A stretch of DNA of 64,000 nucleotides from a phage, in sequence record PZ386958.1. The stretch is one strand, 5' to 3'. The stretch's first letter is position 1, and each line of letters starts with the position of its first letter. Below the pieces are notes generated by a model that was not told where the DNA came from, ran no database searches, and worked only from the letters and a program-made list of their open reading frames with translations. Below, piece by piece: positions 27,565-61,288 of the stretch. The translations under genes and the position numbers were made by a program.

Positions 27565-28056
27565 ATGAATAAGGGTTATTTTGAAAAATACCTAATATAT
27601 GAACCAGATACAGGTTTATTAATTTGGAGAGTAACCCTTTGCAGTACCGCTATTGCTGGTAATGTGGCTGGCACAAGGTCTAAGAAGGGTTATATCCAAG
27701 TCCAGATAAATAAGAAGAGGTACTATGCACATAATATTGCATGGATTATGTCTGGAGGTGAGATACCAAGTGGATATGAGGTAGACCACATAGACCTTGA
27801 TAAAGCTAATAATAAGTTGGAGAACTTAAGACTTAGCACAAAGTCACAAAATCAGAGGAATAGAGGTATATACAAGAATAATAAAACTGGTGTGAAGGGT
27901 GTAAGTTTTTGTAAACAAACAGGTCTTTACAAAGCAAGAGTCATGCTTTACCATAAAGAATACTTTTGTGGAAGATTTAAAACGGTAGAAGAAGCAAAAG
28001 AAGCTGTAATTAAAAAGCGAATAGAACTTCATGGTGAGTTTGCAAGACATAACTAA
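27565..28056 (+). CDS. HNH homing endonuclease with AP2-type domain
   Basis: 163 aa; paralog of 14752-15252 (YEPDTGLLIWRV ... TGVKGVSFCKQTGLYKARV); inserted between Prs-like and NAMPT-like genes. Confidence 0.6.
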   Translation: MNKGYFEKYLIYEPDTGLLIWRVTLCSTAIAGNVAGTRSKKGYIQVQINKKRYYAHNIAWIMSGGEIPSGYEVDHIDLDKANNKLENLRLSTKSQNQRNRGIYKNNKTGVKGVSFCKQTGLYKARVMLYHKEYFCGRFKTVEEAKEAVIKKRIELHGEFARHN

Positions 28057-32794: not shown

Positions 32795-32876
32795 AAATGT
32801 TTGACAAGGGGCTTCAAAGCCCCTTAGAATAACCTCACAAAATGATTTATTAACTAACAAAAGAGAGAGTAACAAG

Positions 32877-39110: not shown

Positions 39111-39896
39111 ATGGGTATTGTAAAAATCATCAATGGGGATATCTTCTCCGCATTTGATAAAGGTAAGTTTGATATCATTGGTCACGGTTGCAACTGTATG
39201 AACTTAATGGGTTCAGGTATCGCTGACAAGATTTCTAAACTTTACCCAAAAGTGTATGATACTGACACAGAAGTTTACCTGTTTGCAGGCGGCATTCGTC
39301 ACAAACCCTGTGAAAATTTACTAGGTAATTTATCTGTAGCACGTTTAAAACAAGGTCGTATAGCTAACCTTTACACCCAACTTCATACTGGTAAAGATGC
39401 CCGATATAGTGCTTTAGAGTCATCTTTGAAACAGCTTAACAGATACTGTGAAGTCAATCAGTTGAAGAAAGTCGGGTTACCTATGATTGGTGCAGGCATC
39501 GGTGGGCTAGACCCTCAAGCCGTCACAGTTATCATTAATCAAGTGATGAAGAGTGTAGATGTGTATCTGTATGTCTATGAAGGAGAGATGTACCACAAGT
39601 TACGCTCAGGTTGGAAGAACTACTGTGAACCAGAATACTTTGCAGGTGTAGTAACGTTCACAGACAATACAGTTACCCTCTTCAGACGAAGAAAAGGTAA
39701 GATACATCAAAGTAACCCTCCGGTTGAAAAGATGTCTCTTAGTAACGCTCTAGTTACCCACCTGTCGAAGAGCAATCACAGGATTGCAGTAACATTTGGT
39801 AGTGATGCAGACACTTATATCTATGCAAGAACTGATGAGGATATCGAGACAGTTTTCTCTTCGCCAGAAGTTACCTTCTTAGACGCAAAGAACTAA
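39111..39896 (+). CDS. Macrodomain protein (TARG1/OARD1-like ADP-ribose hydrolase fold) with C-terminal extension
   Basis: 261 aa; GDIFSAFDKGKFDIIGHGCNCMNLMGSGIADKI parallels the TARG1-type segment (EGDLF...LAHCIS.DC.MGAGIA). Confidence 0.5.
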   Translation: MGIVKIINGDIFSAFDKGKFDIIGHGCNCMNLMGSGIADKISKLYPKVYDTDTEVYLFAGGIRHKPCENLLGNLSVARLKQGRIANLYTQLHTGKDARYSALESSLKQLNRYCEVNQLKKVGLPMIGAGIGGLDPQAVTVIINQVMKSVDVYLYVYEGEMYHKLRSGWKNYCEPEYFAGVVTFTDNTVTLFRRRKGKIHQSNPPVEKMSLSNALVTHLSKSNHRIAVTFGSDADTYIYARTDEDIETVFSSPEVTFLDAKN

Positions 39897-39974
39897 GAAA
39901 CTCTGTAGAGTATTCACAATAGACTAAGCCTTTCTTATCTGGTAAATTTTTCAGGTAAGGAGGGCTTTTTCATT

Positions 39975-40180
39975 TCAGGATTGTGCAGGTAGAGTTCTGT
40001 AGAGAAATCTGTAGAGAGAATTTTGAACTCCAAAGAGAAAATTCATTTTCAAACTGTGCAGGTAATCTCCAAAGAGCTTTTTCATTTTCAAAACGTGCAG
40101 ACCCCGCTCAGGTCGGGCAAGAAAAATCATTTTAGAATTGTGCAGGTAGGTGGGTGCAGGTGGGGATGTCGCCATTTCTC
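39975..40180. repeat. Direct-repeat (iteron-like) cluster: about 4 copies of TCATTTTCA(A/G)(A/G)N(T/C)GTGCAGGTA plus TCTGTAGAG triplet
   Basis: Visible at about 39962-39995, 40043-40075, 40080-40105, 40125-40170 inside a 508-bp gene-free region. Confidence 0.5.
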
Positions 40181-40379
40181 ACAAGGCTACCACATCTGGA
40201 AATAAAAGTCAACAGAAAAATTTGTAGTGGATTGAAAAATAATTCTTGATTGTAGTTCTGTTTTGTGGTAGTCGCGCGCACCCGTTTCATTACAATCTTT
40301 GCAAAAAATATTTTTAAAATTCCTATTGACTCTTTGAGTATGGTTATCTAATATTTGCATCAGACGGGCAATCAAGCCC

Positions 40380-40404
40380 ACTTCCTAAACTGGAGAATCT
40401 AAAA
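40380..40404 (+). promoter_or_regulatory. Conserved translation-initiation module CCTAAACTGGAGAATCTAAAAATG (first copy)
   Basis: Same 3' module as the cassette-array repeat units. Confidence 0.4.
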
Positions 40405-40611
40405 ATGCTTTACAGTCGCGAATTGATGGTTACAACTAACGTTAACACAAAGGCAAAACGTTTTTACATGCAAATCTGTGGCGTATGGTCCAGAATATCA
40501 GAAGCTGACTATTGCAACTATGTAGAAACGGCTATTAATTCTAATTGCTATCTGACAAGAAATACAAGAAAGTACATAAGACAGACAGCAATTTACTACT
40601 ACGATAAATAA
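40405..40611 (+). CDS. Cassette-array small protein
   Basis: 68 aa; followed immediately by repeat unit. Confidence 0.4.
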   Translation: MLYSRELMVTTNVNTKAKRFYMQICGVWSRISEADYCNYVETAINSNCYLTRNTRKYIRQTAIYYYDK

Positions 40612-40697
40612 AGTACTTTACAATGGGCTTATAGTTCGATAAAGTAAGCCCCAGATAAAGAGCTTTACCACTCAATCCTAAATTGGAGAACTAAAAA
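40609..40697 (+). repeat. Cassette repeat unit, class A (hairpin GGGCTTAT..ATAAGCCCC plus RBS)
   Basis: TAAAGTACTTTACAATGGGCTTATAGTTCGATAAAGTAAGCCCCAGATAAAGAGCTTTACCACTCAATCCTAAATTGGAGAACTAAAAA; begins at stop codon of upstream gene. Confidence 0.7.
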
Positions 40698-41078
40698 ATG
40701 GCATATCGTGCACCTAAATTCATCAACAAAGACAACTTTCGCAACGCACTGGAGAAGTCACTTGATGAAAATTTTAAAGGTAACATTATTGTTGTTCACT
40801 CGTTTAATTTCAAGTATGATATCAACGGGAATAGAATCAACCATTACACGGCAACCATGTTAGATGGCACACTATCAAGTGAAAAAGCCGTACTGAATGC
40901 ACTTGCTGGACGTGGTAAAAACCTGATAAAATGCGATAAGAGACGTTATCAGGGTGGCGCATATGGTTATGATGATGCTGTTTATCATCTTGAAAATATG
41001 GGCTATCAAGTAGAAAAAGCTGGAGTGTCTCAAATAATCGGTAGTGATGGTTATGTAACAATCTTCAAAATTAAATAA
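40698..41078 (+). CDS. Cassette-array small protein
   Basis: 126 aa. Confidence 0.4.
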   Translation: MAYRAPKFINKDNFRNALEKSLDENFKGNIIVVHSFNFKYDINGNRINHYTATMLDGTLSSEKAVLNALAGRGKNLIKCDKRRYQGGAYGYDDAVYHLENMGYQVEKAGVSQIIGSDGYVTIFKIK

Positions 41079-41164
41079 AGTACTTTACAAGGGGCTTATA
41101 GTTCGATAAAGTAAGCCCCAGATAAAGAGCTTTACCACTCAATCCTAAATTGGAGAACTAAAAA
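41076..41164 (+). repeat. Cassette repeat unit, class A
   Basis: Near-identical to 40609-40697. Confidence 0.7.
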
Positions 41165-41422
41165 ATGGCTATTATCAAAAACGTTGTAATTGCTGCAAAA
41201 ACTCGTGATGACGCTCGCGTTATGGCTAAAAAGTTATGCGGAAAAGTGGTTGACAACGGAAAACAATCTGCTGTAAGGTGGGGCGTGAAGGCTGATAAAC
41301 AGTTAACTTTAAAACGCAGTTCAAACAACCTTTTTAAAGGTGTAAAATCACTCGGTAAAGTGAACGTTTTTACCAAAAAAGGCTATAAAATGCACTTATC
41401 ATTAACTGGCAATTTAATCTGA
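41165..41422 (+). CDS. Cassette-array small basic protein
   Basis: 85 aa. Confidence 0.4.
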   Translation: MAIIKNVVIAAKTRDDARVMAKKLCGKVVDNGKQSAVRWGVKADKQLTLKRSSNNLFKGVKSLGKVNVFTKKGYKMHLSLTGNLI

Positions 41423-41510
41423 TAAAGTACTTTACAAGGGGCTTAAAAGTTGATATCTTAAGCCCCAGATAAAGAGCTTTACCACTAAATCCTAAACTGG
41501 AGATTCAAAA
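41420..41510 (+). repeat. Cassette repeat unit, class A variant
   Basis: Hairpin GGGGCTTAAAAGTTGATATCTTAAGCCCC then CAGATAAAGAGCTTTACCACTAAATCCTAAACTGGAGATTCAAAA. Confidence 0.65.
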
Positions 41511-42023
41511 ATGAAAACTGTAGACGCTACCTTTGAAGTTGTAAAAGAAAAATTCACCATTATTTATGAAGCTGTCAATTGCTTTGAAGCAAGCCATAAT
41601 CTTGATAATTGGAAGTTTACAGATGACCATCAAGGCGGTGTGACGATTAAAAATCCTAACTGTCAGCGTAATGATTTTAAATATGCAATTCCTTTAAATT
41701 ATAGCCTTAAGCAGCTTTCTAGTGACTATGCAAAACAAGGCCGGGAAAACCCATCAAAAGAGGCTTATATCAGCTTACAGAAAGAACTAGAAAGAGATTT
41801 AGAGGCTTCAGAGTACAACCTTGCCGCGAAAGTTGTGGATGCAAACGGTAACACGGTTTTAGAAAGTTTTTATCTTGGTTATGCTTTCGATTGGTGCTAT
41901 CGTGACGGCGATGATTTAGAGGATAGACTAAAAGAAGAGGTGAGCAATTCAGACGCAGAAACTGAAGTATTAGAACGTTTGGAATCGTTGAAAGACTCAG
42001 TGATGAATATCTTTAAGAACTAA
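41511..42023 (+). CDS. Cassette-array protein (acidic)
   Basis: 170 aa. Confidence 0.4.
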   Translation: MKTVDATFEVVKEKFTIIYEAVNCFEASHNLDNWKFTDDHQGGVTIKNPNCQRNDFKYAIPLNYSLKQLSSDYAKQGRENPSKEAYISLQKELERDLEASEYNLAAKVVDANGNTVLESFYLGYAFDWCYRDGDDLEDRLKEEVSNSDAETEVLERLESLKDSVMNIFKN

Positions 42024-42115
42024 ATAGATTTCTTTACACGGGGCTAACAAGCTGATATAATAGCCCCAGATAAAGAGATTTATCAAATAAAACCCTTAAA
42101 CTAGGAGATTCTAAA
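42021..42115 (+). repeat. Cassette repeat unit, class A variant
   Basis: Hairpin GGGGCTAACAAGCTGATATAATAGCCCC then CAGATAAAGAG...CTTAAACTAGGAGATTCTAAA. Confidence 0.6.
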
Positions 42116-42412
42116 ATGAAATTATCAAATCAAGTGCGTGAAAATCTGAGCAAATTACTCAACAAAATTGATTTCATTGAAACATCAAGAAATAGTCATG
42201 ATGTTATGGAATGGTTACACGGCAAAATAAAAGGCCGTCGTGTAGTGATTTGTTTATGGAATAGTTGCAGGGAGTATAAAAAACCTGTATTGCAAGTAAA
42301 TATTTATGATGATACTTTTAAAAGTCCAGTAAAGTCTAAAAGCGATTTATTAGAATCCTATGAGATAACTTTAAATGGCAAAGTATCACGTAAAGAGGAA
42401 ACACCATGTTAA
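42116..42412 (+). CDS. Cassette-array small protein
   Basis: 98 aa. Confidence 0.4.
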   Translation: MKLSNQVRENLSKLLNKIDFIETSRNSHDVMEWLHGKIKGRRVVICLWNSCREYKKPVLQVNIYDDTFKSPVKSKSDLLESYEITLNGKVSRKEETPC

Positions 42413-42738
42413 TGACTGGTATCACTGCAATCATTGCCATTTTCGCGCTATATAAGGCATATAAAGCCTATAATCTAGCAAATAAGGCAATCACACAGCA
42501 GGTTAGCAATAACCTTGTAGAAAGCTTTCTAGGGCGCCTCAGTGATGAGCAAATAAAGCGGCTAGAGATGAGCTTTAGATTTAAAGCGAAAACCTATCAG
42601 ATTAGTGACATTTTCAAAGATGACTATCAACTTATTGATGATTATAATTCACTGATAAACGCTTTAAATATCAGTGACTTAAAAGACTACTACGCTGTAA
42701 TTGTTCAAGAATTGAGCAAACGAAAACAAAGTGTTTGA
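42406..42738 (+). CDS. Cassette-array small membrane protein
   Basis: 110 aa; N-terminal hydrophobic helix; overlaps previous stop. Confidence 0.4.
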   Translation: MLMTGITAIIAIFALYKAYKAYNLANKAITQQVSNNLVESFLGRLSDEQIKRLEMSFRFKAKTYQISDIFKDDYQLIDDYNSLINALNISDLKDYYAVIVQELSKRKQSV

Positions 42739-42827
42739 CACTGATTTTTAGATAGGCTAAATTACACATCAACGGGGAGGGAATGACCTTCCCCACTAAA
42801 TAAAGTCCTAAACTGGAGATTCTGAAA
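42736..42827 (+). repeat. Cassette repeat unit, class B (TTGACA box plus GGGGAGGGAATGACCTTCCCC hairpin plus RBS)
   Basis: TGACACTGATTTTTAGATAGGCTAAATTACACATCAACGGGGAGGGAATGACCTTCCCCACTAAATAAAGTCCTAAACTGGAGATTCTGAAA. Confidence 0.7.
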
Positions 42828-43100
42828 ATGTATACTACTAACAACGGTCGCACCTTAAATGTCACCTTGCGTCACTATGTAGACGGTGTGATGTGCTTTG
42901 AAGATTTACGGGCTGAGCAACACATCTTAAATTGGCAAGTTGCAGGACTCCAAAAAACTGCTACAGGATACGGGAAAAAGATTCCAACCAGTTGGAAAGT
43001 ATACTACGAAGGACGTTTGCGCAGAATTTATCAGGATGTGCAAAGCAATAGTGCATCTAGTTACATCATAGTAAAAGGTAAAAAGCTGCATTTAGTATAA
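42828..43100 (+). CDS. Cassette-array small protein
   Basis: 90 aa. Confidence 0.4.
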   Translation: MYTTNNGRTLNVTLRHYVDGVMCFEDLRAEQHILNWQVAGLQKTATGYGKKIPTSWKVYYEGRLRRIYQDVQSNSASSYIIVKGKKLHLV

Positions 43101-43186
43101 AGTACTTTACAAGGGGCTTATAGTTCGATAAAGTAAGCCCCAGATAAAGAGCTTTACCACTCAATCCTAAATTGGAGAACTAAAAA
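43098..43186 (+). repeat. Cassette repeat unit, class A
   Basis: Near-identical to 40609-40697. Confidence 0.7.
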
Positions 43187-43591
43187 ATGGCTATTAATAA
43201 CCGTGAATTATCAATTTTAAAAGCACGTTTGACCGTTAACCGGATTAATGTTATCACATCATCAGCACCAGATAAAACACTGCAAAACATTATTGGGAAG
43301 ATTCAAAGTGTTATCTTAGACGTTGAAAGCGTAAAAAATTCATTGGCTGACGTTGCAGCAGGTATCACACTAGACGGTGCGCAATATGAAATGTCCGACA
43401 TGTTAGGCAAATCTAAGGTAATGAATATAGAGTTAGATTTGAAAATGTTCCGATTTGCTGTTAAAGTGTGGCTATCTGTCGAGTATGATGCTAACTTTGC
43501 AATCGCTGACTTTTTCGCCACTTGGTTGCAGCGTAATTTGACTAATCATGACTTCCGCGATATCTGTGATGCAATTTATGCAGAACTCTAA
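43187..43591 (+). CDS. Cassette-array protein
   Basis: 134 aa. Confidence 0.4.
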   Translation: MAINNRELSILKARLTVNRINVITSSAPDKTLQNIIGKIQSVILDVESVKNSLADVAAGITLDGAQYEMSDMLGKSKVMNIELDLKMFRFAVKVWLSVEYDANFAIADFFATWLQRNLTNHDFRDICDAIYAEL

Positions 43592-43699
43592 AAAAAAAAA
43601 AATTTTGTTGACACTGATTTTTAGATAGGCTAAATTACACATCAACGGGGAGGGAATGACCTTCCCCACTAAATAAAGTCCTAAACTGGAGATTCAAAA
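43589..43699 (+). repeat. Cassette repeat unit, class B (preceded by A13 run)
   Basis: Identical core to 42736-42827. Confidence 0.7.
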
Positions 43700-43903
43700 A
43701 TGGCTATTATTAATGGTTTAACCATTGAAACTACACACATCAAAGATGTCAAAGTTGGTGATATAGTCCTTTCCCACGGCGTAGAAAAAACTGTCACTGC
43801 AAAGGATATCAAAGAGGATTCTTTCATGGGTAGGACTCTCTTCGGTGATTCTTATTGCTTAGGCTATCTTGCAGTTTTAAAAGTTGTCAAAAATAACAAA
43901 TAA
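43700..43903 (+). CDS. Cassette-array small protein
   Basis: 67 aa. Confidence 0.4.
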   Translation: MAIINGLTIETTHIKDVKVGDIVLSHGVEKTVTAKDIKEDSFMGRTLFGDSYCLGYLAVLKVVKNNK

Positions 43904-43990
43904 AGTACTTTACAAGGGGCTTATAGTTCGATAAAGTAAGCCCCAGATAAAGAGCTTTACCACTCAATCCTTAAACTAGGAGATTCAAAA
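43901..43990 (+). repeat. Cassette repeat unit, class A
   Basis: Near-identical to 40609-40697 (3' part CCTTAAACTAGGAGATTCAAAA). Confidence 0.7.
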
Positions 43991-44239
43991 ATGATGAACT
44001 ATTTCAATATCCCTGATACCTGCCGACTGTTGACACAAGAAGAAAATTTGGGTAAACCTTTTCTTTACCACATGCCAGATAGCACACCAAAAACTTATAG
44101 TTACAATGTTAACCGTTTTACCGCATACGCTGCAAAGAACGGTTATAAGTTGGTTACTCAAAAAGTAATGCTGGTTACAAGCGCTGACGAGATTCCTACG
44201 GTTGCAGTTAAACTAATTTTCTCAAAGAAAGTTAAATAA
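43991..44239 (+). CDS. Cassette-array small protein
   Basis: 82 aa. Confidence 0.4.
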   Translation: MMNYFNIPDTCRLLTQEENLGKPFLYHMPDSTPKTYSYNVNRFTAYAAKNGYKLVTQKVMLVTSADEIPTVAVKLIFSKKVK

Positions 44240-44326
44240 AGTACTTTACAGGGGGCTTATAGTTCGATAAAGTAAGCCCCAGATAAAGAGCTTTACCACT
44301 CAATCCTTAAACTAGGAGATTCAAAA
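44237..44326 (+). repeat. Cassette repeat unit, class A
   Basis: Near-identical to 43901-43990. Confidence 0.7.
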
Positions 44327-44868
44327 ATGAAATGTTTTCACGGTACTACTCAAGAAAATTTCCTCAACCTTATTAATAACGGTGATAAACCATCAGGCGC
44401 ATGGAATTGTTCTGATATGGATGGGAATTTTTACGTTTACCAGAGAATAAAATCTATGGCGACGATGAGGAAGAAATAATCTTTGAAGGTATCCAGCAAG
44501 CTCTGGGCAATGCCACTATCACCGCAGCTTTTCAGATGAAAACTCAAAACATTGTTATCTTGGAACTTGAGATTCCAGAAGATGAGCTAAACGATGATTA
44601 TTCTTGTGATAATATGTCGAGCGTGGCAAGTTTTACAGAATATTTCGATTTAAATTGGATTAAAAAGGTTTACATCACTGAATTTAATGCTATGTATTCG
44701 CCTTTTTGTCTTCCTTCACTGGATAACCCAAATATGAATTATCTTGATGAGACATTAGAACTACTTGCTAAAAGTGTTCAACAATCGGACAGTATTCAGG
44801 TTTTTTGTGACATCATGGACACACTAACGGAAAACATCGCAGAAGAGGATTTAAAGAGCTTTTTCTAA
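44327..44868 (+). pseudogene. Cassette gene split across two frames (frameshifted gene or programmed -1 frameshift candidate)
   Basis: ATG at 44327 opens a 50-codon frame (MKCFHGTTQENFLNLINNGDKPSGAWNCSDMDGNFYVYQRIKSMATMRKK) that stops at 44479; the -1 frame is open from about 44393 to the stop of the track ORF 44536-44868; no repeat unit between the parts. Confidence 0.4.
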
Positions 44869-44899
44869 AAACCTATGCAATCACCTTATAAACACTATT

Positions 44900-44920
44900 C
44901 AGCCCCTTGTAGGGGCTTTT
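44900..44920 (+). terminator. Hairpin (cagccccttgtaggggctttt)
   Basis: GC stem followed by T-run. Confidence 0.45.
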
Positions 44921-44934
44921 AAGAGGCTTAAATC

Positions 44935-45168
44935 ATGCTTACAACCGTTTATCTTATCCTTTCTATATGTAATGGTCATTCATGCGATTTTAAAGGGCTT
45001 GAAGAGTTTACAGGAAGTAAAGAAAATGCTATTCAAGTTTGCCAGATAGCGAGACAAGACTACCCCGCCAGTGATGACATACAATGCTACTTTAAGACAG
45101 AAGATGAAGACGGTATCTATTTCGATAGTGTAGATGGTCAATATGAAATAATTATAGAAAAAGACTAG
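44935..45168 (+). CDS. Cassette-array small protein
   Basis: 77 aa. Confidence 0.4.
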   Translation: MLTTVYLILSICNGHSCDFKGLEEFTGSKENAIQVCQIARQDYPASDDIQCYFKTEDEDGIYFDSVDGQYEIIIEKD

Positions 45169-45257
45169 ACAAGCCTGATAAAAATCTGTAAATTATCAAT
45201 CAACGGGGAGGGGATGACCTTCCCCACTAAATAAAATCCTAAACTGGAGATTCTAAA
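45166..45257 (+). repeat. Cassette repeat unit, class B variant
   Basis: ...ATCAATCAACGGGGAGGGGATGACCTTCCCCACTAAATAAAATCCTAAACTGGAGATTCTAAA. Confidence 0.65.
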
Positions 45258-45599
45258 ATGGCTTATGTAACTGTAATTACCAATAAAGAAAATTCATCTT
45301 GGTCAACTCAAGTCAGTGATAAGATGTCACCTATGCAGTGCCTAAAATACTTTGAGCAGTGGAACAAAGGCGAGGATGTCAGCCCCTTTCAAGTAATGCA
45401 GATTATCCATACAGATAACGAAGGAAACAAAACGACACTTAATAGCGAGTATTACGCAAATCGTTTTGAGAGTCGAGTTGAAACGATGAAGGGGCTGCGT
45501 GAGGCCGGATATGGGCACATTGCCGCCTTGTTATGGGATAGCCTGCTAAAAAATCAGCGTATCAGCTATGTAAAACCTGAAAAAATATTCATCAGTTAA
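45258..45599 (+). CDS. Cassette-array protein
   Basis: 113 aa. Confidence 0.4.
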   Translation: MAYVTVITNKENSSWSTQVSDKMSPMQCLKYFEQWNKGEDVSPFQVMQIIHTDNEGNKTTLNSEYYANRFESRVETMKGLREAGYGHIAALLWDSLLKNQRISYVKPEKIFIS

Positions 45600-45628
45600 T
45601 CAACAACTTACAAAAAACTTTTAAAAAA

Positions 45629-45665
45629 GTGTTGACAATACCCCTTGACATTGGTAACTTTGTTC
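45629..45665 (+). promoter_or_regulatory. Promoter-like tandem TTGACA boxes (gtgttgacaataccccttgacattggtaact)
   Basis: Two -35-like hexamers in intergenic region. Confidence 0.35.
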
Positions 45666-45749
45666 GAGGGGGTTTATCTAAAAGGGATTCACTTAAAAGA
45701 TTCTTTATAGATAAGCTCAAAAAATTACTTGCAATCAACTATCAAAACA

Positions 45750-45819
45750 AGTAAATTACTAATCAACGGGGAGGGATAACCTCCCTACTAAGTAAAGTCC
45801 TTAAACTAGGAGATTCAAA
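45750..45819 (+). repeat. Cassette repeat unit, class C (GGGGAGGGATAACCTCCC hairpin plus RBS)
   Basis: GTAAATTACTAATCAACGGGGAGGGATAACCTCCCTACTAAGTAAAGTCCTTAAACTAGGAGATTCAAA. Confidence 0.65.
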
Positions 45820-46350
45820 ATGAACAAGTTCAAAGCTATCAACTTCATTCGTTCAAATGCTGTAATGTCAAAGCCTGTTAAAGATACCTATGAATTTCGT
45901 TGCAATGGTGTACACTTTGCAACCATCACTAAATCAGAAAACGGGGCTTATTACGTCCATCGTCGTAATGTTTCTACTGTTGTAGTTTCTCATTTTATGC
46001 AAGCTGTCGCGGAACTTCTCCCGATGTTTTTAGGTCTTTACTTAGATGAGTGTAAAAACGTTCACAACCACGTTAAAAACCTTTTAAACGGTTATAAAAT
46101 GGCTTATGAACGTTCTATCAAGTCACTAAACAAGTTTTACAATGCACCTGAAAATACTGTATCAATAGCCTATGCTGCAAATGGTGAGATGGTAAACTTA
46201 TCCAATGTGGAAGAAATCAAGCTGCATGATTTACGCCCTAGCGGTTACTCTAAGACTCTCGGTGAAGGTTTAACGTTCAATATCAAGAACTTAGAGAAAA
46301 CTTTAAAAGATATTGAAAAAGATATTGACGAGACAACCAAAAATCTGTAA
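45820..46350 (+). CDS. Cassette-array protein
   Basis: 176 aa. Confidence 0.4.
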   Translation: MNKFKAINFIRSNAVMSKPVKDTYEFRCNGVHFATITKSENGAYYVHRRNVSTVVVSHFMQAVAELLPMFLGLYLDECKNVHNHVKNLLNGYKMAYERSIKSLNKFYNAPENTVSIAYAANGEMVNLSNVEEIKLHDLRPSGYSKTLGEGLTFNIKNLEKTLKDIEKDIDETTKNL

Positions 46351-46416
46351 ATTGTCAATCAACGGGGAGGGAATGACCTTCCCCACTAAATAAAGTCCTA
46401 AACTGGAGTTATCAAG
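46346..46416 (+). repeat. Cassette repeat unit, class B
   Basis: CTGTAAATTGTCAATCAACGGGGAGGGAATGACCTTCCCCACTAAATAAAGTCCTAAACTGGAGTTATCAAG. Confidence 0.65.
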
Positions 46417-46680
46417 ATGGAAAACGTAGAATTAACCACACTTTTACAAATTGCAACCGATAAAGAAGACGTAGCTTTATTTCACCGCATCGAAAGTGAT
46501 TTGTTCAATGGTGAAATCATCAAAGAATCTTACGAAGTTGTCGGATTCAAAGACGGTAAAGCGTTTGGCTTTTTTGACCTCGACAAAGGCAAAGCGGTTA
46601 CAAAATATGATGTTTTATCTTGTGAAATTCTGACAAAATACAACGAAAAAAGGCTTGCAACATACGCCAATATGCAGTAA
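46417..46680 (+). CDS. Cassette-array small protein
   Basis: 87 aa. Confidence 0.4.
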   Translation: MENVELTTLLQIATDKEDVALFHRIESDLFNGEIIKESYEVVGFKDGKAFGFFDLDKGKAVTKYDVLSCEILTKYNEKRLATYANMQ

Positions 46681-46746
46681 ATTACTAATCAACGGAGAGG
46701 GATAACCTCCCTACTAAGTAAAGTCCTTAAACTAGGAGATTCAAAA
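46678..46746 (+). repeat. Cassette repeat unit, class C
   Basis: Near-identical to 45750-45819. Confidence 0.65.
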
Positions 46747-46995
46747 ATGGCAACTATCCGCGCAACTGTCAATGCTTATGGCTGTTATACTCTGGATGTT
46801 AAATTCGATATTGGTGGGACTGACGAGTGTTTTTCATTAGTGAAGACAGTTATCAAGCAAGTTATCCCAGATTATAACCCTACTGATGACTTCTGGAAAG
46901 ACGCCGTAAAAGAGGCATTAAACGACGAGCATCACTATCATTACTGGGGTGACTTGATTATCTCACTGTACTACAATAAACAAGGTTACAACTAA
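46747..46995 (+). CDS. Cassette-array small protein (last gene of rightward block)
   Basis: 82 aa. Confidence 0.4.
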   Translation: MATIRATVNAYGCYTLDVKFDIGGTDECFSLVKTVIKQVIPDYNPTDDFWKDAVKEALNDEHHYHYWGDLIISLYYNKQGYN

Positions 46996-47002
46996 TCGAC
47001 GC

Positions 47003-47060
47003 AGCGGGGCTAAATAGCCCCAGATACCTGAACAGCCCCTATTTAAAGGGGCTTTTTTAC
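47003..47060 (+). terminator. Tandem hairpins ending in T-run (cggggctaaatagccccag ... cagcccctatttaaaggggctttttt)
   Basis: Two GC-rich stem-loops, second followed by TTTTTT. Confidence 0.55.
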
Positions 47061-48720
47061 GTCTATGTAATAACCTCTATACAATCCCTTTCCTTTCCTT
47101 TCCAGAATCTATCCCACTAATTCGATAGAATCTATCTCGTACCTTAAAAAGCAATAACTCTATAGTCTACTCTATAACCTTTTATCAAATCAACTTAAAT
47201 ATAAGCCCATAACCCGAAAGGGAAGGGCAACCGTTTAAACGCTCTATAAAGCCCTATAACAGCCTTATCAACCTAACTTAAGGGATTGCATTAACTCACC
47301 CTTAAAAGCTCTTTACAGGGCTTTATAGAGGCTTAAAAGAATCTTATAAGGTTATAAGCTTTATTATCTCGTTAGTATCTTGTGAATATCTAAAAAGGGC
47401 TTGTTAGTGTCTTAAAAGTATGTTATAGGGGCTTAAAAGTTACTTTGAAGTAGCTTAAAAGTTACGTAAAAGGGGCTATAAAGTTACGTAAATACTAGCC
47501 CCCTTAACATTTTCTTAACAATTTCTTAACAAACCCTACATAGTTATACTTTTAAGGCACTTGTTAGCAACTTGTTAGCCCCTTGTTAAATCTCTGTTAA
47601 GACCACGTAAAAGCCTTGTAAGAGTCTTTGACATAGCCTTTAAAGCTCCTGTAAAGCCCTATAAAGAGCTTTCTTCATAGTTGGGGTGTAATTACTAGGA
47701 AGAGGCTTAAAAGAGCTTACAAAGAGCTATAGAGAGCTTTTAAGAGGTATGTTTAGAGAATCACTAAGAGGGAAAGGGAACGATAAGAAAAGAGATAGTG
47801 ACCATGTTAACAGCTTGTTAAAAAGATTAAACACTTGTTAGAAACTTGTTAATTATCTTAATTGGTATTGTTACCAATCCCTACAAAATAACTCTTAAAA
47901 ATTAACTTGTTAGCTCTTGTTAGTCATCTGTTAAGATTCTGTAAAGACTATGTATCAACTGTTAAGAAACTGTTACACCCTTGTTAGTTCTGTTAAGAAT
48001 CTGTTAAGACCTTTGAAGAGTTGTTAAGAAGGTGTGAGAACTGTTAAGAGATTGTTAATGATATTTTAAAATTTTGCAAAGGGGGTGTTAAGGAGCTGTT
48101 AAGGGCTACCAAGCAGATATACATCTTCTACAGATATTTTTCAGTTCCTTCAAAGACCATAAAAAATGACTTGACAGTCTTATTTTATAAAAATTTTAAG
48201 ATTCTGAATAATTACCTATACAGTCTTTCAAAAATACAGGTAGGAACAGGCTTATAAGATACCTTGTTAGTACCGTGTTAGACCTTGTGAGATAAGGTCT
48301 GTAAAGATATTCCTGTTAAGTTTATTAAAACAGTCTATATAGAGGCTTAGTAATACCTAGTGAACAACTATAGAGAGTCACATAGCTAACCTAATGGGTT
48401 ACTGTTAAGTAACACAGGTAACCTAGAGATTAAGAGGTGTATAGGAGCTTCTAAGAGGCTATAGAGAGATGGTTAAGGTGATTGTATAGGTTGTTAAGAA
48501 GGCTTGTTAGAGGGCTTGTTAGAAGGGTTATACAGAGGGCTATTAAGACCACTAGATAGCTACTAAGATACTATATAGTACTATATAACTATATAGAGAG
48601 TAAGATTAAGAAGGTTGTTAAGAAGGATAGATATTTTGTTCACATATGATGGTGACCCAGAGGTTGGGACAACCGATAAAATTTTATAAAAAATATAAAT
48701 TTCGTAAATTTTACTCAATA
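47061..48720. repeat. Non-coding repeat-dense region: 30 or more degenerate copies of (C/T)TGTTA(A/G) plus purine-rich AGAG/TAAGAG and TATATAG runs
   Basis: No ORF of 60 aa or more on either strand; motifs CTTGTTAG, CTGTTAAGA, GGGCTTAAAAGTTAC recur throughout, often in tandem. Confidence 0.6.
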
Positions 48721-48754
48721 AAAAGCCCCCAATTAAGGAGGCTCTTAAGATATT

Positions 48755-58689: not shown

Positions 58690-58766
58690 CTCTGTTTAGC
58701 TCAGCTTGGTAGAGCGTTCCGTTTGGGGCGGTAAGGCCGGAGGTTCAAGTCCTCCAACAGAGACCA
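58690..58766 (+). tRNA. tRNA-Pro (anticodon TGG)
   Basis: Acceptor CTCTGTT/AACAGAG, T-arm GGAGG-TTCAAGT-CCTCC, loop TTTGGGG, 3' CCA encoded. Confidence 0.6.
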
Positions 58767-58773
58767 AATTAAT

Positions 58774-58851
58774 GTTCCAGTAGACAAAATGGTATAGTCA
58801 CCACTCTTTCAAAGTGGATATCTGAGGGTTCAAATCCCTTCTGGAACGCCA
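58774..58851 (+). tRNA. tRNA-Glu (anticodon TTC)
   Basis: Acceptor GTTCCAG/CTGGAAC, anticodon stem CCACT/AGTGG loop CTTTCAA, T-loop TTCAAAT, CCA encoded. Confidence 0.6.
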
Positions 58852-58857
58852 GTTTTG

Positions 58858-58931
58858 ACAGAAGACCAATTACAGCAAACTTAATCTTATTCATCTGAAG
58901 GTAAATCGGACAAAGAAGAGATTTGGTCTGG
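58858..58931 (+). ncRNA. Bracket stem-loop element a (ACAGAAGACCaatTACAGCAA ... tTTGGTCTGG)
   Basis: 5' AGACCAA pairs with 3' TTGGTCT; conserved TACAGCAA; one of four copies with compensatory changes. Confidence 0.45.
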
Positions 58932-58942
58932 TCATTAAGAAT

Positions 58943-59019
58943 TGCGGGTATAGAGAAAGGGCGTCTCACATGTCTCATTAGCATGGTATCGGCAGGTTCG
59001 ACTCCTGCACCCGCCTCCA
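58943..59019 (+). tRNA. tRNA with CAT anticodon (Met or Ile-lysidine)
   Basis: Anticodon stem CATGT/GCATG loop CTCATTA; T-arm GCAGG-TTCGACT-CCTGC; 1-72 mismatch; CCA encoded. Confidence 0.5.
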
Positions 59020-59024
59020 AATTT

Positions 59025-59090
59025 ACAGAAGACCGTTTACAGCAATATTTATTAAATTTTTAGCGGAAAAATTGAAAGATACGGTCTGGT
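59025..59090 (+). ncRNA. Bracket stem-loop element b
   Basis: ACAGAAGACCGTTTACAGCAA ... ACGGTCTGG; AGACCGT pairs with ACGGTCT. Confidence 0.45.
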
Positions 59091-59102
59091 AATACTAAAC
59101 AT

Positions 59103-59179
59103 GGTTAGGAAGCACATAAGGTATGTGCGGTCGCCTGTTAAGCGAATGGCACAGGGTTCGAATCCCTGACTAACCGCCA
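59103..59179 (+). tRNA. tRNA-Asn (anticodon GTT)
   Basis: Loop CTGTTAA; T-arm CAGGG-TTCGAAT-CCCTG; acceptor 3' ACTAACC-G-CCA. Confidence 0.55.
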
Positions 59180-59248
59180 AATTTAGGAGAGAAGCGATTG
59201 CTCACCGATTTGTAAGGTGCAAGTCCTTAGCCTGAATAGAAATTAAAT

Positions 59249-59336
59249 GTGTCGTTATCCCGTAGATGGTAGCGGTGGGGACTGTAAATCCCTTGTCATT
59301 GAGACTCGGTAGGTTCTACTCCTACACGGCACACCA
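59249..59336 (+). tRNA. tRNA-Tyr (anticodon GTA), long variable arm
   Basis: 88 nt; anticodon stem GGGGA/TCCCT loop CTGTAAA; acceptor GTGTCGT/ACGGCAC; CCA encoded. Confidence 0.55.
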
Positions 59337-59341
59337 ATAAA

Positions 59342-59419
59342 GGTTATGTAGTTTAATTTGGTTAAAATACTCCCCTGTCACGGGAGATGATGAGGGTTCA
59401 AATCCCTTCGTAACCGCCA
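59342..59419 (+). tRNA. tRNA-Asp (anticodon GTC)
   Basis: Anticodon stem CTCCC/GGGAG loop CTGTCAC; T-arm GAGGG-TTCAAAT-CCCTT; CCA encoded. Confidence 0.6.
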
Positions 59420-59450
59420 ATTTTGAGAGGGCTATTTAGCCCCTCCCTTA

Positions 59451-59478
59451 AATGGTTCTTACGAGTATCCTTTAAAGG
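59451..59478 (+). ncRNA. Conserved small hairpin GGTTCTTACGAG(T/A)(A/G)TCCTT(T)AAA (copy 1)
   Basis: Second copy at 62447-62474. Confidence 0.3.
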
Positions 59479-59480
59479 AG

Positions 59481-59553
59481 CAGAAGACCAAATACAGCAA
59501 GAACGTATGAAATTTCAAGCCAATTTAATTTTGAAAATTTAAACTTGGTCTGG
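59481..59553 (+). ncRNA. Bracket stem-loop element c
   Basis: CAGAAGACCAAATACAGCAA ... CTTGGTCTGG. Confidence 0.45.
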
Positions 59554-59565
59554 CTCAACAAATTT

Positions 59566-59698
59566 ACAGAAGACCGTCTACAGCAAAACTTAAACAATCT
59601 ATTTCTCCGGTAAAGAAAAGGCGAAGGTTCGATTCCTTCACTCGGCAGATGTCGAGTTGGTGTAATGGTAGCACTTAAGATGATAAACAACGGTCTGG
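59566..59698 (+). ncRNA. Bracket element d enclosing a permuted tRNA-like module (T-arm, acceptor-like hairpin, D-arm); candidate Y-RNA-like ncRNA
   Basis: Closing stem AGACCGT(C)/ACGGTCT; inside: GAAGG-TTCGATT-CCTTC, hairpin ACTCGGC-AGAT-GTCGAGT, then TGGTGTAATGGTAGCAC; no anticodon arm. Confidence 0.45.
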
Positions 59699-59701
59699 TA
59701 A

Positions 59702-59841
59702 TTATCTTTGTAGATAAGTTATTAAGCTTACCTGTGAGTATGCGACCACAAAGGGTGAAAGGGTAAATTCTAGATTTAAACCCAAAAAGGCACATCGCTA
59801 CAGACCTTAAGCAAGTCTGGGTAGCTTATCTACAAAGATAA
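59702..59841 (+). ncRNA. Structured element closed by a perfect 17-bp inverted repeat (TTATCTTTGTAGATAAG / CTTATCTACAAAGATAA)
   Basis: Enclosed ~106 nt has internal hairpins (CAGACCTTAAGCAAGTCTG; AGCTTACC...GGTAGCTT); no ORF. Confidence 0.4.
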
Positions 59842-59847
59842 TTTAAT

Positions 59848-59923
59848 GGAAGTGTAGCAGAATGGTGATGCGGCAGACTTTTAATCTGACAGGCGATGGG
59901 TTCGAATCCCTCCACTTCTACCA
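59848..59923 (+). tRNA. tRNA-Lys (anticodon TTT)
   Basis: Acceptor GGAAGTG/CACTTCT; D-loop AGCAGAATGGTGATGC; loop CTTTTAA; T-loop TTCGAAT; CCA encoded. Confidence 0.55.
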
Positions 59924-59927
59924 AAAT

Positions 59928-60004
59928 GGTTCAGTCGCAGATAAGGTAATGCAGGGGTCTCATAAGCCCTATGAATGTGGGTTCGATTCCCATCTGAACC
60001 TCCA
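59928..60004 (+). tRNA. tRNA with CAT anticodon (second copy; Met or Ile-lysidine)
   Basis: Acceptor GGTTCAG/CTGAACC; anticodon stem GGGGT/GCCCT loop CTCATAA; T-loop TTCGATT; CCA encoded. Confidence 0.5.
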
Positions 60005-60006
60005 AT

Positions 60007-60081
60007 TGTGGGTTAGCATAAATGGTAATGCAAACGGCTGATAACCGTTAGAAGAGGGTTCGATACCCTCACCTACAACCA
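60007..60081 (+). tRNA. tRNA-Ile (anticodon GAT)
   Basis: Anticodon stem AACGG/CCGTT loop CTGATAA; T-arm GAGGG-TTCGATA-CCCTC; CCA encoded. Confidence 0.6.
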
Positions 60082-60095
60082 ATTTCAATAAAGTT

Positions 60096-60130
60096 GTTGA
60101 CATTAAGATGTGACTACTTTATAGTAACCT
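60096..60130 (+). promoter_or_regulatory. Sigma70-like promoter inside tRNA cluster (gttgacattaagatgtgactactttatagtaacc)
   Basis: TTGACA - 17 nt - TATAGT. Confidence 0.5.
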
Positions 60131-60328
60131 TAGTTTTCGTTGCGTAGCGTCTATTTTGCAAATTTAAAATAAATGCAAACGACAATGTTTTTCTGGCAGT
60201 AGCTTGATAGGCTAAACACCAGTGAGGTCTTCCAATCCCTCATCAAAGAATTTGGCGTACTCGCCCACGGTATGATTAATAAGGTGGGCATCTTTAAGGG
60301 CTTTCTAAGAGAGTCTTTAAAGATTAAT

Positions 60329-60403
60329 GCTCCGTTAGTCTAAAGGATAGGCATCTGTCTTCTAAACAGATTGATATAGGTTCGAGTCCTATACGGAGTG
60401 CCA
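60329..60403 (+). tRNA. tRNA-Arg (anticodon TCT)
   Basis: Acceptor GCTCCGT/ACGGAGT; anticodon stem TCTGT/ACAGA loop CTTCTAA; T-loop TTCGAGT; CCA encoded. Confidence 0.6.
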
Positions 60404-60519
60404 TATTTAGAGTGTCTCCAAATGGAGGTGGTCTGTATCTCATGTTTTCCAGAACATGTAAATAATCTGAGAAGGGGCTTTACAGTGTTGAGATAATACG
60501 GTAAGCTTCGAATTATAAT

Positions 60520-60602
60520 ATGGGACGATGTTAAGACTCTAAGGCATGAGCAACGGCTTCCAACACCGTTTCAAAGGGGTTCAACTCCTCCGTCCCATGC
60601 CA
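60520..60602 (+). tRNA. Atypical 83-nt tRNA (possible anticodon CCA, Trp) or tRNA-like gene
   Basis: Acceptor ATGGGAC/GTCCCAT and T-arm AGGGG-TTCAACT-CCTCC clear, CCA encoded; D/anticodon region too long and folds ambiguously. Confidence 0.35.
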
Positions 60603-60615
60603 AAGTCTTATTAGG

Positions 60616-60703
60616 GGTAGGTAGCGGCTAATGGTAGCCAAACTGTCTTGAAAACAGTTGCCACTGTAGAGATACGGTGAGGGTTCGACTCCTTTACTTA
60701 CCG
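60616..60703 (+). tRNA. tRNA-Ser (anticodon TGA), long variable arm; CCA apparently not encoded
   Basis: Anticodon stem ACTGT/ACAGT loop CTTGAAA; long extra arm; T-arm GAGGG-TTCGACT-CCTTT; acceptor 3' ACTTACC-G then CCT. Confidence 0.45.
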
Positions 60704-60859
60704 CCTAATAAGATTTTAAAGCCAAGCTTCATTCGGATGTTGCTTTGGCATCCCTCGTGTTGTCGTACACACTAATAAAGCACCTAGTAGGTGTCATGGA
60801 GAAGAGATAATATCAAGCTCTCCAAAGGTTCTAGTCACCGGATTAAACAAGACTATGCA

Positions 60860-60880
60860 AAGACCAATTTAGGTCTTTTT
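60860..60880 (+). terminator. Hairpin plus T-run (aagaccaatttaggtcttttt)
   Basis: Stem AGACC/GGTCT followed by TTTTT within tRNA cluster. Confidence 0.45.
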
Positions 60881-60959
60881 AGAGGGCTTCTAAGGTTATT
60901 ACAGCTTGTTGTGGAACCTTGTTGCTTAGGTTCTTAGAAGTTCTCTAAAAAGATTTAAT

Positions 60960-61036
60960 GCACCTATAGCCCAACTGGTAGAGGCAGCAGACTTAGAATC
61001 TGCTCAGTGTGAGTTCGAATCTCTCTAGGTGTACCA
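60960..61036 (+). tRNA. tRNA with anticodon TAG (Leu-decoding), short variable arm
   Basis: Acceptor GCACCTA/TAGGTGT; anticodon stem GCAGA/TCTGC loop CTTAGAA; T-loop TTCGAAT; CCA encoded. Confidence 0.45.
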
Positions 61037-61043
61037 AATTAAT

Positions 61044-61119
61044 GCAGGTGTAGCAGAATGGTGATGCGGCTGACTCTTAATCAGTAAGACGATGGGTTCA
61101 ATTCCCTCCACCTGTACCA
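61044..61119 (+). tRNA. tRNA-Lys (anticodon CTT)
   Basis: Paralog of 59848-59923; loop CTCTTAA; acceptor GCAGGTG/CACCTGT; CCA encoded. Confidence 0.55.
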
Positions 61120-61125
61120 AACATT

Positions 61126-61201
61126 GGGGATGTAGTTTACATGGTTAAAACATAAGTTTTGCAAACTTAAGTACAGGGTTCAATTCCCTGCTTCTCCACC
61201 A
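61126..61201 (+). tRNA. tRNA-Ala (anticodon TGC)
   Basis: Anticodon stem TAAGT/ACTTA loop TTTGCAA; G3:U70 wobble in acceptor; T-arm CAGGG-TTCAATT-CCCTG; CCA encoded. Confidence 0.55.
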
Positions 61202-61207
61202 ATTAGT

Positions 61208-61282: not shown

Positions 61283-61288
61283 AATAAA

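Follow-up and report, generated by a model that had tools for sequence, protein, structure and literature searches.

Promoter-early stem-loop (PeSL) cassettes have been described in the T4-type phages RB49/phi1, T4/PST and KVP40/nt-1 (Arbiol et al. 2010, PMC2839356; Comeau et al. 2014, PMC4122927). A PeSL joins a σ70-like promoter to a stem-loop, often of the form GGGG...CCCC, that lies between the two boxes, over the −10 box or after it, and the element spans the interval from a stop codon to the Shine-Dalgarno sequence (SD) and ATG of the next gene (PMC2839356, PMC4122927). PeSLs cluster in hyperplastic regions, and both their indels and the mapped mini-circle crossovers fall between the −10 box and the ATG (PMC2839356, PMC4122927). 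Here, we analyzed a stretch of 64,000 nucleotides (nt) of phage DNA (record PZ386958.1; “the window”), identified as a Felixounavirus (Felix O1-like myovirus), which contains an array of 16 small open reading frames (ORFs; W1 to W16, 40405-46995) between two terminators. Most of these genes are preceded by a repeated unit, and the array probably consists of self-contained expression cassettes of the PeSL type in a variable small-gene region of a Felix O1-like myovirus. This design was previously described in T4-type phages and is not reported for this group; our literature search found no paper linking Felixounavirus or Felix O1-like phages with PeSLs.

The array contains seven units of class A, four of class B, two of class C and one unclassed unit in front of W1. 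An earlier reading of the same DNA (the original prediction) had placed and counted the copies of the three classes correctly, and their recurrence is far beyond chance (class A 24-nt core: 7 occurrences, 0.00 expected; ribosome-binding site [RBS] module: 6 occurrences, 0.22 expected). All 14 units lie within 6.6 kb of the window, where unit profiles found no further copy elsewhere, and a scan of the whole window for the unit architecture placed 11 of its 13 matches in the array, with 1.05 expected window-wide. Each unit fills the whole gap between the upstream stop codon and the next ATG (intergenic gaps of 66 to 108 nt), and the units amount to 60 to 100 nt of near-identical sequence recurring about every 400 nt in a single orientation. 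The claim that nearly every gene carries a unit held for 14 of the 16 genes; W6, which overlaps W5, and W12, which follows a different hairpin without a promoter, have none, and the W1 unit had escaped the three proposed classes. About 17 genes had been counted where 16 were found, because the ORFs at 44327-44479 and 44536-44868 are a single gene (W11), split by a 1-nt deletion near 44441 relative to three relatives; either W11 is a pseudogene in this phage or the missing nucleotide is a sequencing error. For comparison, arrays were segmented from the window, 8 GenBank relatives and 18 IMG/VR contigs (n = 27), using the upstream phosphatase gene and the distal terminator as bounds, which gave 361 units.

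The first component of the unit is a predicted promoter. All 14 units of the window carry σ70-type −35 and −10 boxes with a spacer of exactly 17 bp: TTTACA-17-TAAAGT in class A (with a −10 box of TATCTT or TATAAT in two copies), TTGACA, TAGACA or TTGACG followed after 17 bp by TAAATT in class B, TTGCAA-17-TAAATT in class C and TTGACT-17-TAATAT in the W1 unit. The unit had been described in the original prediction as a hairpin plus RBS; the hairpins are real sense-strand structures (see below), but the promoter had been glimpsed only as a TTGACA box in class B, which is exact in two of the four copies, the other two reading TAGACA and TTGACG. Class B and C units have their −35 or −10 box over the stop codon of the preceding gene. 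The 71 distinct class A sequences from the 27 phages all share cTTTACA and the −10 pattern TAnnnT, with free variation at the three middle −10 positions and in the remaining loop; this is the sequence signature of a σ70 promoter. Anchoring 125 distinct units of the downstream type (hairpin after the −10 box) on the hairpin only recovered TTGACA and TAAATT at fixed distances, along with a conserved ATCAAC at the expected start. The depositors of phage ASO1A labelled these sites as promoters. A run of A11T4 lies upstream of the −35 box in the unit at 43592; at the other units, the upstream sequence is coding or holds few AT-rich bases. Assuming a start 7 to 8 nt 3′ of the −10 box, predicted class B and C transcripts would begin 2 to 4 nt before an 8-bp GC-rich stem, and predicted class A transcripts would begin within the 3′ arm of the hairpin, at CCCC-A-GATAAAG. 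A search of the literature for transcript mapping in Felix O1-like phages returned nothing usable; reverse transcription-PCR (RT-PCR) of Felix O1 detected ORFs 16, 20, 21 and 22 (W4, W8, W13 and W14) at 5 min (PMC3185647), which lends weak support to early expression of array genes. A different layout was considered for class A, in which TAAAGT at the upstream stop codon is the −10 box and the hairpin sits at the 5′ end as in class B. It was rejected, as the differing upstream coding sequences contain no conserved −35 box, and it is the internal TTTACA-17-TAnnnT, not the upstream box, that is retained in the divergent unit at 42024 and in the variants of SUSP2 and Erwinia. Outside the array, the rIIA-rIIB intergenic region (32801-32830) contains a promoter of like design and unrelated sequence, with TTGACA, an 18-nt spacer that is itself the hairpin AGGGGCTTCAAAGCCCCT, and TAGAAT.

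The second component, the hairpin, occupies one of two rigid positions: within the spacer and over the −10 box in class A, or at about +4 of the predicted transcript in classes B and C and the W1 unit. It begins 21 to 22 nt before the end of the −10 box in 145 of 152 “inside” (class A-type) units and 11 to 12 nt after the −10 box in 122 of 167 “downstream” (class B-type) units. Class A stem cells pair in 94.5% of cases compared with 17.8 to 62.6% for slid partners, and the compensatory changes include GGTG/CACC, G-C to U-A and C-G to U-A, with U.G pairs in 29 distinct sequences. Complementarity is kept across 34 stem variants in the downstream type, whose stems exchange GC, AT and CG at depths 4 and 5 and have G.U at depth 6 in 59 of 98; the value of 1.0 for paired stem cells in this type holds by construction of the hairpin finder and was not used, pair types by depth being the informative measure. 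The sense strand folds more stably than the antisense strand in 38 of 58 distinct class A and 46 of 66 distinct class B hairpins (fold z-scores of −4.1 and −3.1, respectively). On the opposite strand, or in a DNA palindrome, each G.U pair would turn into an A.C mismatch. The predicted hairpins are, by their patterns of substitution, selected sense-strand structures. Stems are 7 to 9 bp long. In class A read-through RNA they can extend up to 14 bp, interrupted by a 3 × 3 internal loop, when CUUUA of the −35 region pairs with the invariant UAAAG 3′ of the hairpin, a pairing that may explain the invariance of AGATAAAGAG. An Rfam scan of the array at E ≤ 1 found no family.

Two rival explanations assign the hairpins another role. 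In the first, they are plain rho-independent terminators between genes and the rest of the unit is a conserved leader. The hairpins do stand 10 to 25 nt 3′ of the upstream stop codon, those of class B are labelled “rho-independent terminator” in the ASO1A, XTG1 and KhF1 records, and one T4-type PeSL stem-loop lowered lacZ expression about as well as rrnB T1 (PMC2839356). However, no unit hairpin is followed by a U-tract (the tails, AGATAAAGAG or ACTAAATAAA, hold 1 to 2 T per 8 to 10 nt), and they are therefore not canonical terminators; a consensus scan of 9.5 kb picks up the two flanking terminators and no other, and the labels in XTG1 and KhF1 are on the wrong strand for the genes. Moreover, the class B and C hairpins come about 4 nt after the predicted start of their unit and would cut short the unit's own transcript, and the invariant −35 box and TAnnnT pattern would be left unexplained, making this explanation unlikely. 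The second, which we also regard as improbable, takes the inverted repeats as DNA operators at which a dimeric phage regulator, bound over the −10 box in class A and at +1 in classes B and C, shuts down the early cassettes jointly. These are classic repressor positions, and the surroundings of the boxes are tighter than promoter function requires (e.g., the invariant CCCCAGATAAAGAG); in addition, Bas63 encodes a “putative transcriptional regulator” and the mechanism of transcription timing in Felix O1 is unknown (PMC3185647). Against an operator, the stems differ between classes and genera with pairing kept, G.U pairs that would be mismatches in a palindrome are frequent, class B-type loops of 3 to 13 nt leave the spacing of half-sites unfixed, and folding is more stable for the sense than for the antisense strand.

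The 3′ part of the unit is a standard leader whose GGAG SD is half-paired with an upstream UCC or CCU. The RBS module at its end had been called invariant in the original prediction and exists in three variants (CCTAAATTGGAGAAC, CCTAAACTGGAGATTC and CCTTAAACTAGGAGATTC). In the leaders within 40383-46746, a mini-hairpin of 3 to 4 bp half-covers the SD, as UCC[UAAACU]GGA or UCCU[UAAACU]AGGA; this anti-SD/SD pairing is found in 161 of 214 distinct array RBS regions, compared with about 31 when shuffled and 1 of 24 other window genes. Erwinia phage phiEa21-4 uses a different SD (AAGGA), which is likewise preceded by its complement, CCUU. As every SD is GGAG, the target of T4 RegB, a nuclease of this kind was considered, but it gained no support from Pfam searches of 20 mid-sized window ORFs, a part of the genome, which found no RegB-like domain. 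A dedicated phage factor that recognizes the hairpin and leader is a speculative and rather improbable addition to the PeSL-type reading; such a factor would act either in joint switch-off of the cassettes via the anti-SD/GGAG mini-hairpin or as a structure-specific recombination function, cutting out cassettes as circles that co-infecting phages exchange, in the manner of an integron but with no integrase. If it exists, the array would be a purpose-built gene-exchange or regulatory platform common to four Ounavirinae genera.

Comparison of relatives, proposed in the original prediction as a check for cassette gain and loss at unit boundaries, did reveal turnover. Across the 27 arrays and Felix O1, arrays hold 9 to 20 genes; the segmented arrays are 5.3 to 8.1 kb long, and ORF clustering yielded the 16 families of the window plus 13 accessory families. 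Felix O1 has only 9 of the array genes, the W2-W3 and W9-W12 blocks each being replaced by a single unit. The crossover interval of each presence/absence event was mapped in the closest pair of genomes, and an event was taken as resolved when junction identity was at least 90%; x24 was set aside as a 1-nt difference in gene calling with no real indel. In 13 of the 14 well-resolved single-gene indels, the crossover lay between the hairpin and the ATG (−37 to +4), in the 5′ untranslated region (UTR) part of the unit, and in the remaining one (W2) it lay at the 5′ edge of the unit. The genome without the gene retained exactly one unit of normal length in every resolved indel. Modular swapping of genes, as originally predicted, is therefore borne out as far as gain and loss at unit boundaries are concerned, but not as reshuffling: gene order is collinear in all 27 arrays, where only presence or absence varies, and the sole order conflict among the 29 families is x16. 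This gene (62 to 65 amino acids [aa]) is the first of the array in five phages, and a 40%-identical homolog lies between W12 and x22 in a Michonne-like contig (L032 11296 versus L001 740).

The two halves of the unit differ in their linkage to the neighboring genes. The promoter/hairpin half tracks the upstream gene in 95% of all cases and, among the informative ones, in 100%; W8 is followed by a class B-type half in 27 of 27 arrays, regardless of the next gene, and whether W10 and W11 are preceded by an A or a B half depends on their left neighbor only. The three RBS variants are linked to neither neighbor (modal share, 61 to 63%). The leader is thus the exchange zone, and, as the 5′ half belongs with the upstream gene, the mobile segment is an RBS part, an ORF and the next promoter/hairpin. 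The original prediction of a hairpin for each gene missed that the promoter/hairpin half in front of a gene physically belongs to the gene upstream and not to the one that it would drive. Crossovers are spread over about 40 nt of leader and occur between classes within the shared leader, which argues for homologous rather than site-specific recombination. It is thus very unlikely that the units are selfish or site-specific recombination elements, be they similar to miniature inverted-repeat transposable elements (MITEs) or attC-like with a dedicated recombinase moving mini-circles. For RB49 and phi1, mini-circles arising between PeSLs have been observed, and the authors brought up a GGGG...CCCC-binding protein (PMC2839356); here, the x16 family occupies two slots and a vestigial half-unit stands at the array end. 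Yet the crossovers do not converge on one hairpin site, the units occur only in this array, in one orientation and exactly filling the gap from stop codon to ATG, gene order is fixed apart from x16, no target-site duplications were seen, and no integrase-like domain was found among the ORFs tested. Weakest of all is the notion, put forward in the original prediction, that the hairpins are sites at which RNase III (or another endonuclease) cuts a long early transcript as in the T7 early region: a regular hairpin does stand between the genes, and the class A read-through stem, with its internal loop, reaches 14 bp, but RNase III needs about 20 bp (about two helical turns), the stems fall short of this at 7 to 9 bp or an interrupted 14 bp, a promoter in each unit leaves processing unneeded for single-gene messages, and with no Rfam match and no RegB-like nuclease among 20 ORFs tested the notion is hardly credible.

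Same-position class A units of Felixounavirus share 90% identity, compared with 73 to 93% for array genes; between Felixounavirus and the Sf13/Michonne/SUSP group, genes share 61 to 77% identity and units about 80%, even at non-orthologous positions. The claim that units are far better conserved than genes therefore stands from copy to copy, because the array genes are unrelated to each other, and reduces to a modest margin at any one position. Identity is higher between units from different positions in one group (85%) than between units that occupy the same position in two groups (80%), which indicates long-term concerted evolution. Sensitive blastn searches with single units matched 254 to 289 records, all from Felix O1-like phages (Ounavirinae) of four genera, including 29 Erwinia phiEa21-4-like phages at 76 to 80% identity, and no T4-type phage was matched. 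The array of the Erwinia phage follows the same gene and has the same architecture with altered stems. Comparable repeats were absent from two distant loci (L037 and L038; 40% anchor identity).

The units share with PeSLs σ70-like −35 and −10 boxes at 17-bp spacing (in all 14 window units), a stable stem-loop at a defined position relative to the promoter, an SD at the 3′ end, the filling of the whole intergenic gap, clustering in many copies among small genes of unknown function, and indels between close relatives that end in units, with crossovers between the −10 box and the ATG. Their lineage is Ounavirinae and not T4-like and, given that they have no sequence similarity to T4-type phages, the kinship is one of design and not of demonstrated descent. 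The two systems also differ in that the class B and C hairpin here lies inside the predicted transcript at about +4 and not before the start, that the leader is uniform with an anti-SD/SD mini-hairpin, and that gene order is rigid, with almost pure presence/absence variation. Promoter and terminator activity and mini-circles have been demonstrated for PeSLs of T4-type phages (PMC2839356). The Felix O1 genome paper (Whichard et al. 2010, PMC3185647) lists a 57-bp repeat (CTTTACATGGGGCTTAAAAGTCTGTAAAGTAAGCCCCAGATAAAGAGCTTTACCACT) and a 39-bp repeat (TTGACACTGGTTTTTAGATAGATTAAATTACACATCAAC) as direct repeats only. They are the very same elements, the 57-bp repeat being class A and the 39-bp repeat the class B promoter; in that paper, they are not among the predicted promoters and are not recognized as hairpins or recombination substrates, and the regulation of (temporal) transcription in Felix O1 is stated to be unknown (PMC3185647). 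PAK_P1-like phages have several copies of a promoter repeat (TTGACA-N17-TAgAAT) that is nearly identical from copy to copy and specific to the clade. The copies lie in a short putative early region, and in these, as here, conservation extends beyond both boxes; however, their sequence is unrelated, they number only 2 to 6 copies, and no hairpin or link to gene gain and loss is described (PMC4309531). Integron cassettes offer a looser parallel in their small, individually dispensable genes of one orientation, variable content and structured repeats in between. Unlike integrons, the cassettes of this array carry promoters, crossovers are spread across a homology tract and not confined to a fixed site, gene order is conserved, and no integrase domain was found by Pfam among the ORFs tested.

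If the array is of PeSL type, host RNA polymerase would start at every unit soon after infection, so that each small gene would be expressed on its own. The hairpin would then act in RNA, capping the 3′ end of the upstream message as an attenuator or exonuclease barrier without a U-tract, and in classes B and C it might also form a 5′-terminal stem-loop that shields the gene's own message from 5′-end-dependent decay. Such terminal stem-loops protect against decay that depends on the 5′ end (RNase E), and the stem-loop of the ompA 5′ UTR is reportedly an mRNA stabilizer of this sort. The class B and C hairpins, within about 2 to 4 nt of the predicted 5′ end, would share this geometry, which does not fit class A, with its predicted start inside the hairpin. 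Whole genes would be deleted or inserted by ordinary homologous recombination between units, with the expression of their neighbors left unbroken, since long near-identical sequence recurs at short intervals in one orientation.

Several points weigh against this reading. Promoter activity, start sites and every role of the hairpins in RNA are features that we infer, and the class A −10 boxes TAAAGT and TATCTT match the consensus at only 4 of 6 positions. The RT-PCR of Felix O1, though coarse, places ORFs 17, 19 and 23 of the same block at 25 min (PMC3185647). As class A transcripts are predicted to start inside the 3′ arm, a role as 5′ stabilizer is impossible for half of the units, and the hairpins may not all share one role. 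The distinct sequences behind the covariation counts have common ancestry, and fewer independent events took place than these counts suggest. Same-position identity of units within Felixounavirus (90%) exceeds same-genome identity (84%), and homogenization must therefore be slow; rapid homogenization within a genome was not seen in Felixounavirus on these figures, but only between groups. Finally, the clean intergenic indel junctions could partly reflect selection against broken genes and not the mechanism of recombination.

All units lie on the + strand. Unit 1 (40326-40404), predicted to drive W1, is of the downstream-hairpin type (−35 TTGACT 40326-40331; −10 TAATAT 40349-40354; hairpin GGGC/GCCC 40366-40379; SD GGAG 40392) and matches the class B-type profile (uB) at E = 1.3 × 10−6, with a fold z-score of −2.9. 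Class A is represented first by unit 2 (40609-40697; −35 TTTACA 40617-40622; −10 TAAAGT 40640-40645; SD 40685), whose hairpin at 40625-40651 extends across the spacer and the −10 box, and by unit 3 (41076-41164; −35 41084-41089; −10 41107-41112; hairpin GGGGCTTAT/GTAAGCCCC 41091-41119; SD 41152; fold z-score −4.1), which is identical across 100 nt to the unit at 43097. Unit 4 (41423-41510) is a class A variant (−35 41431-41436; hairpin GGGGCTTAA/TTAAGCCCC 41438-41466) in which the −10 box TATCTT (41454-41459) has TG upstream. The divergent unit 5 (42024-42115) has TTTACA at 42033-42038, a 17-nt spacer, TG-TATAAT with the box at 42056-42061, and the hairpin GGGGCTA/TAGCCCC at 42040-42067; its promoter matches the consensus at 11 of 12 positions. 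The remaining class A copies are units 7 (43098-43186; −35 43106; −10 43129; hairpin 43113-43141), 9 (43901-43990; −35 43909; −10 43932; hairpin 43916-43944) and 10 (44237-44326; −35 44245; −10 44268; hairpin 44252-44280). Class B begins with unit 6 (42735-42827; −10 TAAATT 42758-42763; hairpin GGGGAGGG/CCTTCCCC 42774-42794; SD 42815), in which the −35 box TTGACA (42735-42740) lies over the W6 stop codon, and continues with unit 8 (43592-43699; A/T run, −35 TTGACA 43608-43613; −10 TAAATT 43631-43636; hairpin 43647-43667; SD 43688; fold z-score −3.1) and unit 11 (45166-45257; −10 TAAATT 45189-45194; hairpin 45205-45225), where the −35 box TAGACA (45166-45171) contains the W12 stop codon. In the last class B copy, unit 13 (46325-46416; hairpin 46364-46384), the −35 box TTGACG (46325-46330) lies within W14, and the TAA of the −10 box TAAATT (46348-46353) is the W14 stop codon. 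Class C comprises unit 12 (45729-45819; −35 TTGCAA 45729-45734; −10 TAAATT 45752-45757; hairpin GGGGAGG/CCTCCCT 45768-45786) and unit 14 (46655-46746; hairpin 46698-46712), whose −35 box TTGCAA (46655-46660) lies within W15 and whose −10 box TAAATT (46678-46683) supplies in its TAA the W15 stop codon. Two further + strand hairpins in the array are not units: AGCCCCT/AGGGGCT followed by TTTAAG (44901-44917), without a promoter, between W11 and W12, and the weakly terminator-like CCCCTTGAC...GAGGGGG followed by TTTATCT (45641-45672; z-score −2.5), 3′ of W13, which is annotated as a terminator in phage ASO1A.

The 16 genes, all on the + strand, have no recognizable domains, as originally stated: Pfam found none in any array ORF, and each falls in a separate PHROG of unknown function. 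Present in all 27 arrays are W5 (42116-42412; 98 aa), W7 (42828-43100; 90 aa; phrog_3436), W8 (43187-43591; 134 aa; phrog_4327), which is ORF20 of Felix O1, W11 (44327-44868; 180 aa when intact in relatives; phrog_3303), W12 (44935-45168; 77 aa; phrog_4640) and W13 (45258-45599; 113 aa; phrog_4318). W4 (41511-42023; 170 aa), with a homolog annotated in Erwinia phage phiEa21-4, and W9 (43700-43903; 67 aa; phrog_3623) each occur in 20 arrays, W1 (40405-40611; 68 aa; phrog_5293) and W15 (46417-46680; 87 aa; phrog_7022) in 17, and W10 (43991-44239; 82 aa; phrog_9030) in only 9. The set is completed by W2 (40698-41078; 126 aa; phrog_4495), W3 (41165-41422; 85 aa; phrog_5089), W6 (42406-42738; 110 aa), which overlaps W5 and shares one unit with it, W14 (45820-46350; 176 aa; phrog_4725) and W16 (46747-46995; 82 aa; phrog_4559). 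Homologs of W4 (n = 52) and W14 (n = 60) were all on Felix-like contigs of 85 to 90 kb. Sequence searches with W4, W8, W11 and W14 gave no functional match. AlphaFold models of W4 and W14 were confident (predicted local distance difference test [pLDDT] scores of 92 and 93), and structure searches with them found no significant PDB neighbor. The original suggestion of anti-defence and host-takeover genes in this region was neither backed nor contradicted by these searches.

In a megablast search, the region 40300-47100 matched 257 phage records. Nearly all are myoviruses of the Felix O1 type, from Escherichia, Salmonella, Shigella and Citrobacter, and phage XTG1 is the top match (92% identity over 98% of the query). 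A long block of genes for replication and nucleotide metabolism (among them primase/helicase, NrdA, rIIA, rIIB, polynucleotide kinase and spanins) has the array at its end, on the + strand and directly 3′ of a gene at 39111-39896 that matches the Macro domain (PF01661; E = 2 × 10−7) and is called “phosphatase” in relatives. Both bracketing terminators are canonical intrinsic ones on the + strand. The left one (39926-39967), which closes the upstream operon, has a 17-pair stem followed by TTTTTCATTT and the same sequence as Felix O1 “t13” (PMC3185647 Table 2); the right one (47034-47053) is Felix O1 “t23” (PMC3185647). Just 3′ of the last gene, at 47006-47026 (+ strand), direct reading reveals the vestigial class A hairpin, GGGGCTAAATAGCCCC plus AGATA without the promoter loop, which is also kept in Felix O1. 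Between t13 and the first array promoter (39961-40145) lie four copies of a repeat of about 28 to 34 nt ending in TTCATTTTCAAA-NN-GTGCAG(GT). Downstream of the array, 1.7 kb (47060-48750) is free of ORFs and dense in the short repeats CTTGTTAG, CTGTTAAG and GGCTTAAAAG; 19 of the 55 matches to YTGTTARR in the window fall within 47514-48622. Its counterpart is annotated as “repeat_region” in relatives, UAB_Phi87 has terminal repeats of 608 bp, and the stretch may be a genome end or a replication origin. Elsewhere in the window, a group I intron on the − strand (5484-5767; Rfam RF00028, 63.3 bits, E = 1 × 10−13) splits a family-A DNA polymerase gene into ORFs 5664-7877 and 4880-5434; three ORFs resembling homing endonucleases (two HNH_3 + AP2, one SegE-type GIY-YIG) lie within 14716-15746 and 27565-28056; and 25 tRNA genes cluster at 58690-63556 (+ strand).

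Felix O1-like phages are widely used in Salmonella and Escherichia coli typing, biocontrol and therapy. Reading their “direct repeats” as one promoter per gene would provide a testable map of 14 early start sites and would explain why otherwise near-identical therapeutic phages differ in gene content (9 to 20 genes). The units could serve as natural, context-insulated expression parts in phage engineering, and the 16 to 29 small conserved ORF families are candidates for host-interaction screens. On this reading, the PeSL design, documented so far only in T4-type phages, would recur with unrelated sequences in another myovirus subfamily, and such recurrence points to a general solution by which accessory genes are added or dropped with their neighbors undisturbed.

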